Below, in pieces: positions 27,710-34,412 of a DNA stretch of 64,000 nt (the first letter of the stretch is position 1; every line of letters starts with the position of its first letter). Origin of the DNA: a virus (taxonomy: Duplodnaviria; Caudoviricetes); IMG/VR virus record IMGVR_UViG_3300046170_000302; one strand, given 5' to 3'. The notes beneath the pieces are model-generated. The model ran no database searches. It saw nothing but the letters and a program-made list of their open reading frames with translations, and had not been told where the DNA came from. Both the position numbers and the translations under genes were made by a program.

Positions 27710-28702
27710 ATGGATTTTATTGATGTCAAATACATCAATTTGATCTCCTCCAGACTTCAAAAGTTCAAAAGAGTAAAGCCAAAGCTTTATAACTTCCGAT
27801 GTCCCATATGTGGTGACTCTCAGAAGAATAAGAACAAAGCTAGAGGTTTTCTTTATCAGGTTAAGAACAATACTAATTTCAAGTGCCATAACTGTGGTAT
27901 CAGTGTTTCGTTTGCAAACTTCTTAAAGGATTTGGATCCTCAAACTTATAAACAATATACTTTTGAGAAGTTCAAAGAAGGTAATACTGGTAAGAACTTT
28001 GTAACAGAATCACCTGAAGATATGTTTAGTAAGATGAGAAATACTAAACCAACATTTAAGAAGAAGATTGTCATCGATCTCCCTTCTGCTTTCAGTATTC
28101 CATCGTCTAAACACTATTTGGAATCTAGAGCCATCTTGAGTGGGAACTTTTATTACGCAGAAAACTTCCAAGAGTTTGTTAATAGTATCAAACCAGGTTC
28201 ATTTGAACATCCTAAATTTGGTGAATCTAGAATTGTAATTCCTCTTGTCAGGGATGAGAAACTTATCGGGTTACAGGGCAGAGCCCTATCTACAAACCCT
28301 GTTAAATACTTAACCGTTATGTTGGATGAGGATGCCCCAAAGATCTATGGAACCGATGAGATTGACAAATCCCTTCCAGTCTATATTACAGAAGGACCAT
28401 TCGACTCTACGTTCATTCGCAACTCGGTTGCTATGTGTGGAGCTGATGTTGATGTCGTCAGTTGCGGGATTAGTAATCCTGTCTGGATATATGATAACGA
28501 ACCACGCAACTCCCAAATCACCAGAAGAATTGAACAAACAATCGATCAAGGAGATAGAGTCGTTATCTGGCCCTCCAATATTCGGGAAAAGGATATAAAT
28601 GATATGGTCTTAAGTGGACATAAAGTTCAAGAGATTGTAGACAAAAACACCTACAAAGGATTAGAAGCAAAACTAAAATTTACCAGTTGGAAAAAAGTAT
28701 GA
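27710..28702 (+). CDS. gp61: DNA primase gp61
   Basis: Zn finger CPICGDS...CHNCG; TOPRIM EGPFDS; YDNEPRN; KDINDM. Confidence 0.96.
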   Translation: MDFIDVKYINLISSRLQKFKRVKPKLYNFRCPICGDSQKNKNKARGFLYQVKNNTNFKCHNCGISVSFANFLKDLDPQTYKQYTFEKFKEGNTGKNFVTESPEDMFSKMRNTKPTFKKKIVIDLPSAFSIPSSKHYLESRAILSGNFYYAENFQEFVNSIKPGSFEHPKFGESRIVIPLVRDEKLIGLQGRALSTNPVKYLTVMLDEDAPKIYGTDEIDKSLPVYITEGPFDSTFIRNSVAMCGADVDVVSCGISNPVWIYDNEPRNSQITRRIEQTIDQGDRVVIWPSNIREKDINDMVLSGHKVQEIVDKNTYKGLEAKLKFTSWKKV

Positions 28703-31000
28703 GTAACGGTACAAAGGTTCAGAAGAGAGATGGTCGTGTTGAATCACTTGACCTGGATAAGATGCATCTTATGGTTGAAGAGGCGTGTGATGGCCTATCA
28801 AATGTGTCTGCTAGTCAGGTAGAGATGACATCTGGTATTCAGTTCTATGATGGCATTACTACTGCTGAGATCCAAGAGATTCTTATTAAGAGTGCCAGTG
28901 ACCTGATTGACTTGGATCACCCCAACTATCAGTTTGTAGCTGCAAGACTCCTTCTGTTCTCTCTTAGGAAGCAACTGTATGGTGGTAGGAGGGAGATGCC
29001 TTCCTTGATTGATCACATCACCAAACTGGCATACGATGATCACTATGATAGAGATATCTTTACAAAGTATTCACAAGAAGAGATTGAGAAGGTAGAAACT
29101 TTTATTGATCACGATCGTGATTTTCTATTCACATATGCTGGTTTGAGGCAGGTTGTGGATAAATACCTAGTACAAGATAGGAGTATTGGAAAGGTACACG
29201 AAACTCCTCAGTTCATGTATATGATGATTGCATTGACAATCTTCCGTGAGTATCCAAAAGAAACAAGACTTTCCTACGTTAGAAGATACTACGATGCCAT
29301 CTCAAAACACAGACTCAACATCCCAACGCCAATCATGGCGGGTGTCAGAACTCCCCTACGCCAGTTTGCGTCTTGTGTTCTGGTTGATGTTGATGACACC
29401 CTGGATAGCATTTTTAGTTCTGATATGGCCATTGGCCGTTATGTCGCACAAAGGGCTGGCATCGGTATCAACGCTGGCAGGATCCGTGGGATCAACAGTA
29501 AAATCAGGGGCGGAGAAGTACAGCACACTGGCGTTGTTCCTTTCCTTAAGAAGTTTGAATCAACTGTACGATGCTGTACACAAAATGGGATTCGTGGTGG
29601 CTCAGCAACAGTCCACTTCCCCATCTGGCACCAAGAAATCCAAGACATCATCGTCTTAAAGAACAACAAAGGCACAGAAGACAACAGGGTACGGAAACTT
29701 GATTACTCAATCCAAATTTCAAAGATTTTCTACGAACGTTTCATTGCGAATGGAGAGATTAGCTTGTTCTCACCGCACGACGTACCGGGTCTGTATGATG
29801 CCTTTGGTACTGACGGGTTCGATGATTTATATGTTAGTTTTGAACGAGATGAGTCTGTTCCAAGAAAGAGTATTAAAGCACAAGAACTAATCCTCGATAT
29901 TCTCAAAGAAAGAGCAGAGACCGGTCGTCTGTATCTGATGAATATTGACCATTGTAACTCTCACTCTTCTTTCAAAGATAAGATTGAGATGAGTAATCTG
30001 TGTCAAGAGATTACTCTCCCCGACATATCCTTTGTCACACATCGATGACCAGGTTGGTGAGATTGCACTGTGTATTCTCTCAGCAGTCAACGTTGGTAAG
30101 ATTAAGTCCGATGAGGAACTAGAAGACCTCTGTGACCTAGCTGTGAGGGGTCTAGACGAGTTGATTGACTATCAAGACTATCCAATCATCGCAGCTGAAC
30201 TTGCAACTAAGGCAAGAAGGTCTCTGGGTATTGGTTACATTGGATTGGCACACTACCTAGCAAAGTTGGGTTACTCCTATGATTCACAAGAGGCATGGGA
30301 TGCTGTTCATGGACTCTCTGAGTCCTTCCAGTATTACCTTCTGAAGTCTTCTAATCAGTTGGCTAAGGAGAAAGGTCACTGTGAATACTTTGGTCGCACC
30401 AAATACTCCAGTGGAACACTACCTATCGATACATATAAGAAAGATGTAGATGAACTAGTATCAACGGAGTTGCAACATGATTGGGATATGCTTAGGAATG
30501 ATATCCTCGAATACGGTCTCAGGAACTCAACACTGTCCGCACAAATGCCATCGGAAAGCAGTTCCGTTGTGTCAAACGCAACTAATGGAATCGAACCTCC
30601 TCGTGGATACTTGTCCATTAAGAAGTCCAAGAAAGGGCCTCTTAAGCAAATTGTTCCCCAGTATGCCTCATTGAAGAATAACTATACTCTTCTGTGGGAT
30701 ATGAAAGATAATGGTGGATACATTAGAATAGTAGCTGTGATGCAAAAGTTCTTCGACCAGGCAATTTCTGGTAACTGGAGTTATAATCCAGAGAACTATC
30801 CTGATAATGAGGTTCCTGTTTCCCAGATGGCAAAGGATTTTCTCACAACTTATAAATATGGTTGGAAGACATCCTACTATCAGAACACTCACGACTTAAA
30901 GTCTGATGAAGTAGATGAAGAGCCGCAGTCGAAGTTAGATGAATTGTTATTAGAACTATCACAAGCCGAGGAGGGAGAGTGTGAATCCTGTGCAGTTTAA
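28699..31000 (+). CDS. nrdA: Ribonucleotide reductase class Ia alpha subunit (frameshift near 30020-30040)
   Basis: ATP cone; TPIMAG; SCVL; SNLCQEI; MPSESSS; YQN; C-terminal CESCAV. Confidence 0.95.
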
Positions 31001-32178
31001 AGTTTCACCAGTAGGTGGCAAAGATATCATGAATGAAGTGAAAGGTATGACGGTGTTTAACACCGAGGTACATGATGCAAAGAAACAACCAATGTTCTTT
31101 GGTAAACCTCTGGGAGTCCAGAGGTATGATTCTTATAAGTATCCGGTGTTTGAAAAACTTACTACACAACAACTTGGATACTTCTGGAGACCAGAAGAAG
31201 TTTCACTACAGAAAGATAGAGGAGACTATCAGTCTCTCCGTCCAGAACAGAAACATATCTATACTTCTAACCTGAAGTATCAGATTATGTTGGATTCTAT
31301 TCAGGGTCGTGGTCCTGGTATGGCATTCATTCCTTACTGTTCCTTACCTGAACTAGAAGCATGTATGGAAGTCTGGGGATTTATGGAGATGATCCATAGT
31401 CGTTCCTACACATACATCATTAAGAACATTTACTCTAATCCAGCTGATGTGTTGGATAAGATTGTCACAGATCAAAAGATCCTAGACCGTGCCAAGAGTG
31501 TTACAGAGTCATATGATGACTTCATCAACACCGCACAAGTCTGGGGAACTACTGGTATGTGGTCTGCAGATTTTAGAGGATCTCCATCAACTGAGTATGA
31601 AATCAAGGAAGTCAAGCGTAAGCTCTACAGAGGCTGTTGCGAATGTCAACATCCTGGAAGGCATTCGTTTCTATGTCAGTTTTGCTTGTTCTTTTGCTTT
31701 CGGCGAGCTCAAACTCATGGAAGGGTCGGCGAAGATCATTAGTCTTATCGCCCGTGACGAGAATCAGCATCTTGCAATCACGCAGAATATCCTGAATAAG
31801 TGGAAGAGTGGTGATGATCCTATGATGAAACAGATCGCCAAAGAAGAAGAAGAGTGGGTCTATGCAATGTTTGATAGAGCTGTGAATGAGGAGAAGGCTT
31901 GGGCTGACTACCTGTTCAAGGACGGTTCTATGATTGGTCTAAATGATACCCTATTGCAACAGTATGTTGAGTGGATTGCCAATCGTCGTATGAAGGGTAT
32001 AGGATTGAAGCCAGTCTATGATGTACCTGCTAAGAACAATCCCTCTCCCTGGACCCAACACTGGATCTCCTCGAAGGGACTGCAAGTGGCACCACAAGAA
32101 ACGGAAGTTGAATCTTATGTCGTCGGTGGAATCAAACAGGATGTACAAAAAGACACTTTCTCAGACTTTAAACTCTGA
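30981..32178 (+). CDS. nrdB: Ribonucleotide reductase class Ia beta subunit (frameshift near 31630)
   Basis: FWRPEEV; MEMIHSRSY; LEGIRFYVSFAC; RDENQH; APQETE. Confidence 0.95.
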
Positions 32179-32945: not shown

Positions 32946-33540
32946 ATGAAGAAACTATTAACACCTTTACTAGCAACACTGTTGGTAGGATGTCAACAAG
33001 CCTCAACAGGAGCCAACTTATCAGTTGATGTCACTGAAGACAATAACACAGCTGTACCTATTGAAGTTGTTCCACCAATCAAATGGACCTGTCCAACATG
33101 TACAGACAATGAAAAATATGTCCTCAAACAACTACAAGAAAAAACAAGAATCACAGATCGAAATGCCTTGGCAACGATCATGGGTAATATTAAACAAGAA
33201 AGTAAGTTCTATTCCAACATTTGCGAGGGAGGGGACTAGAGTTCCTTACTCTGATTGCCATCGGGGTGGGTACGGACTCATTCAGTGGACCTCTACACAG
33301 CGTCATCTGGGGTTAGGATATTTCGCTAAAAAGTATGGATGTGATCCTAGCACTCTTGAGTGTCAGACACGTTATATGATTAACGAACCTATCTTCCAAC
33401 GGTATCTTCCTGAGTTTGAAGGTAGTGACCAGAGTATTGCTCAGTATATGGTTCCTTCCTACTACTGGTTAGGGTGGGGAATTGAGGGATCAAGAGAGAC
33501 ATATAGTCATCAATACAGATCAAAGCTACTGAAGCCTTGA
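32946..33540 (+). CDS. Lipoprotein with phage-tail-lysozyme-like (lysozyme2) domain; frameshift near 33232
   Basis: Lipobox LLVG-C; ALATIMGNIKQES; GGYGLIQWT. Confidence 0.7.
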
Positions 33541-33565
33541 CAAGGGTAGGAGCACCCTCTATAAT
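33537..33565 (+). promoter_or_regulatory. Consensus sigma-70 promoter driving the ncRNA/tRNA operon
   Basis: TTGACA-17-TATAAT. Confidence 0.88.
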
Positions 33566-33570
33566 ATAAG

Positions 33571-33633
33571 GGTTGAGAGATCAACTGCGGTGACCCCCTT
33601 GGTAGTTCAGGGTTAGCGGCGATAGGAACTACC
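33571..33633 (+). ncRNA. Structured RNA: GNRA hairpin plus H-type pseudoknot
   Basis: GGTTGA-GAGA-TCAACT; TGACCC/GGGTTA; GGTAGTTC/GAACTACC (8 bp). Confidence 0.6.
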
Positions 33634-33637
33634 TCTT

Positions 33638-33710
33638 GGGTCAGTAGCTCAGTGGATAGAGCATCGCACTTCTAATGCGTTGGTCGGGGGTTCAAATCCC
33701 TCCTGACCCG
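33638..33710 (+). tRNA. tRNA-Arg(UCU)
   Basis: Cloverleaf; anticodon loop CTTCTAA; TTCAAAT T-loop. Confidence 0.93.
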
Positions 33711-33712
33711 TT

Positions 33713-33784
33713 GCCTCCGTAGCTCAGTGGTAGAGCAGGGCTTTTGTAAAGCTCAGGTCGCAAGTTCAAATCTTGTCAGAGGCT
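33713..33784 (+). tRNA. tRNA-Thr(UGU)
   Basis: Anticodon loop TTTGTAA; one acceptor-stem mismatch. Confidence 0.9.
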
Positions 33785-33788
33785 CCTC

Positions 33789-33862
33789 GCGGAATTAGTT
33801 TAGAGGCAAAACTAAAGGTTTCCAACCTTTCGTCACCGGTTCGATTCCGGTATTCCGCTCCA
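33789..33862 (+). tRNA. tRNA-Gly(UCC), CCA encoded
   Basis: GCGGAAT/ATTCCGC acceptor stem; loop TTTCCAA. Confidence 0.9.
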
Positions 33863-33863
33863 A

Positions 33864-33935
33864 TCCTCTGTAGCTCAGCGGTAGAGCCGACGACTGTTAA
33901 TCGTCTGGTCGCAGGTTCGAATCCTGCCGGGGGAG
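33864..33935 (+). tRNA. tRNA-Asn(GUU)
   Basis: Anticodon loop CTGTTAA; GGTTCGAATCC. Confidence 0.93.
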
Positions 33936-33938
33936 TTG

Positions 33939-34010
33939 GCTCGAATAGCTCAGCGGTAGAGCACCTCCTTTACACGGAGATTGTCGGGGGTTCGATCCCC
34001 TCTTCGAGCA
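33939..34010 (+). tRNA. tRNA-Val(UAC)
   Basis: GCTCGAA/TTCGAGC acceptor stem; loop TTTACAC. Confidence 0.93.
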
Positions 34011-34241: not shown

Positions 34242-34412
34242 ATGGAAGTTTTTTCTGTAGAAGAATTTCAAGAACGATGGGACGAACTAATAACTAGAGT
34301 GGAAAAGGGGGAGACGTTAGGAGTAGTGAATGAGAACGGGAATGCAGCTGTGATGGTTCCAGTTGATGATCCAGTATACAAGATGTATTGTGATCACAAC
34401 GAGGCCAGTTAA
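34242..34412 (+). CDS. Phd/YefM antitoxin-like small protein (56 aa)
   Basis: MEVFSVEEFQERWDELITRVEKGETLGVVNENGNAAVMVP; not in the ORF track. Confidence 0.55.
   Translation: MEVFSVEEFQERWDELITRVEKGETLGVVNENGNAAVMVPVDDPVYKMYCDHNEAS

Follow-up and report, generated by a model that had tools for sequence, protein, structure and literature searches.

The window, a 64,000-nt stretch of DNA, represents a T4-like cyanophage region that carries a primase gene, nrdA and nrdB, a five-tRNA array, sugar epimerase genes and a PhotoRC-II RNA (RF01717, 56218-56312). The nrdA, nrdB and lysozyme-like ORFs each appear split across two frames (28687-32178, 32946-33540), probably by sequencing or assembly frameshifts, and a Phd/YefM-like antitoxin ORF without an evident toxin lies 3' of the tRNA array (34242-34412). 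Ahead of the array is a sigma70-type promoter (TTGACA at 33537-33542, 17 nt, TATAAT at 33560-33565). It is the top-scoring site within 2.6 kb and was rightly called perfect in the preliminary description of this locus. Presumably, it is an early phage promoter read by the host polymerase. The promoter is followed by an RNA extending over 33572-33633, composed of a 5' hairpin (P0) and an H-type pseudoknot. The features of the locus, all on the + strand, are:

33537..33565, +, sigma70-type promoter TTGACA-17-TATAAT, 12/12 match
33572..33585, +, P0, the 5'-terminal hairpin, with a 5-bp stem and GAGA loop (GUUGA-GAGA-UCAAC)
33586..33620, +, stem 1; all cells paired (100%), 7/9 pairs with two-sided changes
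33597..33600, +, loop 1, CCUU; invariant in matches selected on stem 2 only
33601..33633, +, stem 2, the pseudoknot helix (33601-33608 with 33626-33633); 8-10 bp in relatives
33621..33625, +, loop 3, N-A-Y-A-G; 5 nt fixed, both A residues invariant, likewise in matches selected on stem 2 only
33634..33637, +, single-stranded spacer to the RNase P site of tRNA-Arg, 4 nt (TCTT)
33638..34010, +, tRNA array Arg(UCU), Thr, Gly, Asn, Val, downstream of the pseudoknot RNA

The pairing of the loop with 33626-33633, the resulting H-type pseudoknot and its distance of 4 nt to G1 of tRNA-Arg (33638) are all present in the sequence as initially proposed. The region of the tRNA array, which appears to be a co-transcribed passenger of the pseudoknot RNA, includes a terminator-like hairpin (33990-34009).

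Because the folding energy of the element is unremarkable (z ~0, single-sequence folding) and pseudoknots of equal size arise by chance in 0.4-0.7% of 63-mers (21 of 3000 random 63-nt windows, 11 of 3000 shuffles), the single sequence proves little. The proof is comparative. In an alignment of 63 variants, pairing holds in 99.7% of cells and two-sided changes affect 11 of the 17 pairs, such that the covariation check suggested at the outset yielded compensatory changes. In 112 variants, 99.6% of cells pair and the covariation score reaches 0.50, as compared to 0.19 for shuffled alignments and at most 0.09 for slid registers; none of 500 shuffles attained this score. Both pseudoknot helices covary strongly. 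When viral contigs were scanned with the stem 2 arms only and free spacing, 73 of the matches listed had the spacing seen at this locus, versus 1-6 at any other spacing. Later scans freed each part in turn, and all scans combined gave at least 409 distinct contexts and at least 207 core variants; class counts given here are counts among the matches listed in these pattern scans and not population frequencies. The patterns of the first two scans constrained different parts, so the invariant joining nucleotides cannot be put down to the patterns themselves. At the level of sequence comparison, these data confirm that the pseudoknot is real.

The comparison also refined the individual parts of the fold. 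The GNRA-capped hairpin formerly placed at 33571-33586 exists at 33572-33585, but G33571 and U33586 are not part of it, and its GNRA loop, found in just 109 of 259 relatives listed, is not conserved: the P0 loop ranges from 4 nt up to whole additional RNA domains. The first P0 pair is G-C in 232 of 232 cases, and the inner pairs covary. The first G of P0, which we infer to be the transcription start (+1), is found 6 nt downstream of the -10 box in 232 of 297 relatives listed. The promoter recurs as well, with a -35 box matching at 5/6 or more positions in 232 of 259 relatives listed and a frequent extended-10 TG. In one sub-group (L245, L260, L271, L183, L261, L580), the P0 loop contains a conserved UCGCUACC, a possible pairing partner for the GGUAG strand in stem 2.

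The proposed TGACCC/GGGTTA stem (33591-33596 with 33610-33615) is present and covaries, but forms only the core of a longer stem 1. Three additional pairs connect 33587-33589 with 33620, 33618 and 33617, making nine pairs in total, interrupted by a near-invariant G33590.G33616 mismatch and a bulged G33619. One of the extension pairs covaries between G-C and U-A in 17 of 112 variants. The 5' foot is an invariant U-G-C, with U33586 belonging to the invariant core. True length variants of stem 1 or loop 3 were absent from the 99 pattern matches with altered spacing that were listed, the stem 1 candidates examined being chance matches or coding sequence. In stem 2, GGTAGTTC (33601-33608) pairs with GAACTACC (33626-33633), and an A33609.G33625 pair probably caps the helix. 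Its distal four pairs covary freely, and the junction-proximal pair 33605:33629 is G-C in 263, U-A in 82, G-U in 45 and A-U in 18 of the contexts listed. The CCUU of loop 1 runs parallel to G33626-A33627-A33628 and probably occupies the major groove of stem 2 as a third strand, forming C.G-C, U.A-U and U.A-U triples. An extra U in loop 1 occurs in 99 of 100 U-A variants versus 90 of 132; this would suit a fourth triple, but kinship and distal pairing are confounders, and we do not count it. In all relatives, a single A separates the 5' strand of stem 2 from the 3' strand of stem 1. Altogether, about 18 invariant nucleotides lie within a 50-nt core of fixed geometry.

The family reaches well beyond tRNA operons. 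A tRNA follows in 187 of 409 contexts listed, almost always Arg-UCU or Pro-UGG and usually after 4 nt, and a tRNA-like start in 13. An ORF follows in 159 contexts listed, representing 42 unrelated families that include DUF6561, purM, gp32, psbA, 2OG oxygenase, halogenase-like and Phd-like proteins, and another promoter lies directly downstream in 25. Identical cores carry different downstream neighbours. The fold is intact in all downstream classes, with stem 1 perfect in 82 of 83 ORF-linked and 22 of 23 next-promoter copies listed. These numbers bear directly on the possibility that the RNA is a tRNA-leader element tuning RNase P processing of tRNA-Arg or tRNA-Pro. The spacer is near-constant in length (4 nt in 131 of 171 tRNA-linked copies listed) and variable in sequence, and in the window the 5' strand of stem 1 can pair with the first six bases of the tRNA. 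However, this alternative pairing is unconserved (6/6 pairs in 21 of 171 copies versus 13.6 with shuffled partners), ruling out a conserved switch with the tRNA acceptor, and roughly half of the copies sampled lack a downstream tRNA. As these non-tRNA copies are intact, a leader function is largely refuted as a general role, and we regard it as extremely improbable. For the same reason, the release by tRNA processing put forward in the preliminary description fits the tRNA-linked copies but not the remaining ones.

In ORF-linked copies, the spacer to the ATG is ~17-25 nt long, 84% AU and SD-like in only 4 of 79, so the fold stays clear of the ribosome site. A stable hairpin lies just downstream in only 16 of 112 non-tRNA copies listed; thus, in mRNA-linked copies, the RNA may remain within the leader. 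Linkage to the Phd-like antitoxin proved weak, such an ORF being found within 1.2 kb downstream in only 21 of 198 copies listed. On the other side, two loci (L066, L184) contain a conserved non-coding block (GGCAATCCATAAGT ... GGGAACCATTTGAC) ~50-100 nt upstream that runs into the promoter and whose 3' part is present in 29 of 303 contexts listed.

Carriers include S-SM2, Bellamy, ACG-2014f, S-SKS1, S-B05, S-B43, S-H68, RB11-B, S-SCSM2R, SynMITS9220M01, P-SSM2 and P-SSM5, and none of the carrier records shown annotates the pseudoknot RNA as RNA. The core occupies 144051-144101 in P-SSM2 (NC_006883), where the copy is ORF-linked, and 142161-142209 in S-SM2 (GU071095), where it is tRNA-linked. 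Whole-genome covariance-model searches gave one copy each in 17 of 17 carrier genomes. Among the contexts listed, two copies occur at two loci only (L055, L624); at L055, one precedes tRNA-Pro and the other tRNA-Arg, ~1.1 kb apart. The RNA was undetected in 12 cyanomyoviruses, namely S-SSM7, S-PM2, Syn9, P-HM1, S-CAM9, S-SCSM1, P-SSM4, S-CRM01, P-TIM68, Syn1, S-IOM18 and WH25-B, and weak BLAST matches in S-IOM18 and WH25-B were antisense coding sequence. In 185,579 prokaryote genomes, there was one match, a typical copy before tRNA-Pro on an 832-nt MAG contig, which is probably phage contamination rather than a host homologue. Given its patchy presence in cyanophages and near-absence from bacteria, the RNA is an accessory phage feature.

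The RNA had initially been left without a named family, and the Rfam check agrees: Rfam 15 gave no match at the gathering threshold or at E-values up to 10, returning only the tRNAs and the distant PhotoRC-II. Literature searches by words and by sequence retrieved no description of it, and Ocean-VI is unrelated. The TYMV-type tRNA-like structure has a pseudoknotted acceptor with a 3' CCA, which differs from the situation here: many copies do end in ACC-A, but this end varies together with stem 2 (AGG, GTC, AGC and AGA ends). Likewise, the T-even gene 32 autoregulatory pseudoknot precedes gp32, whereas the pseudoknot RNA does so in only 3 of 159 ORF-linked copies listed. Closer in setting are the orphan RNA motifs manA (RF01745), wcaG (RF01761) and PhotoRC-II (Weinberg 2010, PMC2864571), which are likewise covarying RNAs of marine T4-like cyanophages with function unknown, and manA is sometimes directly adjacent to the pseudoknot RNA. 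Yet the latter matches none of these models and is tied to no gene class. In the first 200 of the 438 supplementary files of PMC2864571, it is present solely in the unaligned sequence flanking manA matches, and main-text passages of PMC10690425 (Fremin 2023) and PMC5737381 (Weinberg 2017) contain no mention of it, though the 10,006 candidates that PMC10690425 leaves unnamed may include it. Taken together, the comparisons point to a real and apparently undescribed structured RNA family of cyanomyoviruses, for which the structure is strongly supported and a function can be proposed.

Our preferred explanation, to which we assign a probability of roughly 0.5, is that the locus is a single-copy gene for a stable early RNA that would be freed by host nucleases and whose rigid core would bind a partner as a decoy; the decoy step, with roughly half the weight of this hypothesis, is the least supported part. 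That the RNA is small and independent, as already suggested in the preliminary description, is consistent with its covariation, its own promoter and fixed start, its single copy and the lack of an Rfam match. If the element regulated in cis, it would be expected to keep to one class of genes, and an all-purpose stabiliser would be expected at numerous promoters. Its occurrence once in each carrier genome, with a fixed start, a rigid core and neighbours that can be exchanged, is better matched by a gene for a small RNA that has passengers behind it. An RNA of ~62-70 nt would be made from its own host-type promoter, starting at the G that closes P0, so that the 5' triphosphate end would be base-paired. 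The 3' end would be freed by RNase P where a tRNA follows and by endonucleolytic cleavage within the AU-rich spacer where an ORF follows, and exonucleases would trim it no further than stem 2 with its triple helix. The MALAT1/MEN-beta 3' triple helix, a eukaryotic lncRNA element with long U-A-U runs, offers an analogy for this maturation step only, in that a triplex located just 5' of an RNase P-cleaved tRNA(-like) unit would protect the new 3' end. The RNA would then accumulate and act in trans, the invariant core (UGC, G.G, bulged G, CCUU triplex, NAYAG) providing the binding surface, and P0 and the distal stem 2 pairs the scaffold. The putative partner would be a host protein that is neutralised or titrated, with the RNA serving as a decoy or in an antitoxin-like manner. 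Against a stand-alone RNA, we found no partner gene tied to it, no tandem repeats and no type III toxin gene.

Because the mRNA-linked copies have no obvious 3' boundary, the main rival is a cis-acting 5' stabiliser, an xrRNA-like cap that blocks 5'-end-dependent decay (RNase J, RNase E scanning) and protects whatever transcript follows during host RNA degradation. The position of the RNA, nearly always at the transcript start with P0 flush with the predicted +1, its indifference to the downstream gene and its location outside the ribosome footprint would suit such a cap. Moreover, stem 1 spans about one helical turn and, together with the fixed 5-nt loop, could ring the 5' strand, which is suggestive. 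However, a cap should hardly be limited to a single copy per 200-kb genome despite many early promoters, and tRNA precursors shed their leader at once. The RNA also persists in front of genes that are served by a separate promoter 10-30 nt away, and some copies carry an entire manA RNA or another domain 5' of the core. We consider the cap, which the preliminary description had also named, a serious, though on balance unlikely, possibility.

The invariance of about 18 nucleotides in a compact core surrounded by heterogeneous neighbours could also indicate a new small self-cleaving ribozyme that trims the transcript 5' end or separates co-transcribed RNAs. The order of the stems and the C-N-A strand joining onto the last helix are loosely reminiscent of HDV, with its P1/P2 and its J4/2 joining strand. 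The HDV-like/theta fold, however, is a nested double pseudoknot in which P3, L3 and P1.1 separate the 5' strand of P2 from the 3' strand of P1, whereas the pseudoknot RNA has a single A at this place. It matches no Rfam ribozyme and begins at the putative +1, where no cut is needed. It further sits 5' of tRNAs, while theta ribozymes process tRNA 3' trailers (PMC10879173). Self-cleavage by the pseudoknot RNA is thus very unlikely.

Another candidate function, the ligand sensor of the preliminary description, would require an aptamer, either an orphan riboswitch or a small-molecule sponge, with its pocket in the major-groove triplex. H-type pseudoknot triplexes do form pockets in the SAM-II/V, preQ1, guanidine-III and glutamine-II riboswitches (PMC6698751), and the pseudoknot RNA occurs in tandem with manA and psbA-leader RNAs. 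Its GUUCA...UAG-GAAC repeats the pseudoknot helix sequence of glutamine-II (Downstream-peptide, RF01704), with which it shares the GUUC/GAAC helix, the A after the helix and the purine-rich strand before GAAC; glutamine-II has a major-groove third strand, a feature that is only predicted for the pseudoknot RNA. The connectivity, in contrast, is different, and the ligand contacts of glutamine-II, namely C1:G40, G18 of the linking strand and the fixed G2:C39, are absent: the C1:G40 equivalent is G-C in 169 and A-U in 127 cases and never C-G, the third strand is CCUU, and in 100 of 409 contexts listed U-A or A-U replaces the G-C pair equivalent to G2:C39. In addition, there is no terminator or SD overlap that could serve as an expression platform, and the downstream genes are incoherent, as the ORFs fall into 42 unrelated families and tRNAs are the most frequent neighbours. 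The case for a ligand sensor is therefore weak, and we judge an aptamer to be quite improbable.

Returning to the stand-alone small RNA, two types of phage-related RNA provide useful comparisons. RNAC and RNAD of T4 lie in the tRNA cluster, are co-transcribed with tRNAs and are about twice as long as the pseudoknot RNA. Like the latter, they are small phage RNAs, and they are expressed, with function unknown (PMC9697503). They have been reported as late RNAs, unlike the pseudoknot RNA with its host-type promoter and, often, no tRNA. The type III antitoxins ToxI, CptI and TenpI are, similarly, small H-type pseudoknots, and they bind a protein, an endoribonuclease toxin that they inhibit; moreover, phage PhiTE uses a pseudo-ToxI RNA as a decoy (PMC3475682). 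The type III layout of repeats, terminator and toxin differs from that of the pseudoknot RNA, which is a single unit without tandem repeats or a terminator-plus-toxin operon, has variable downstream genes and carries an extra 5' hairpin. A more specific version, which we offer tentatively and hold to be rather doubtful, is that the RNA is free and nuclease-proof and counters a defence protein or signal of its marine picocyanobacterial host by acting as a decoy or sponge. It would belong to a modular set stacked behind strong promoters, including manA and a second nested pseudoknot, whose members would be trans-acting effectors and not cis-regulators.

With the pseudoknot RNA, a well-supported and apparently uncatalogued RNA family becomes known from viruses that are abundant in the ocean, and its indifference to downstream genes questions the default cis-regulator reading of cyanophage motifs such as manA. 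It also offers an entry point to the old question of the role of small RNAs in phage tRNA regions. As it is present in the cultured phage-host pairs of P-SSM2, S-SM2 and S-SKS1, its function is testable at once, and with ~65 nt and a rigid core, it is suited to probing, crystallography and pull-down.

Some copies are directly combined with other RNA domains. At L213:1-224, a manA RNA abuts the pseudoknot core, with gp32 downstream. A second, unclassified pseudoknot domain, without an Rfam match, is found at L534:5720-5830 (- strand) and inside P0 in L247, L441, L473, L485 and L536. It consists of a GGGCA..UAAGUC arm, a CCCC/GGGG stem, a covarying RUACA/UGUAY pseudoknot and a CUG-AGUAUAAG-CAG hairpin. 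In 14 of its 28 contexts, this domain directly precedes the core of the pseudoknot RNA, mostly within P0; in the other 14, it stands alone, mostly ahead of psbA-type leaders and once ahead of gp32.
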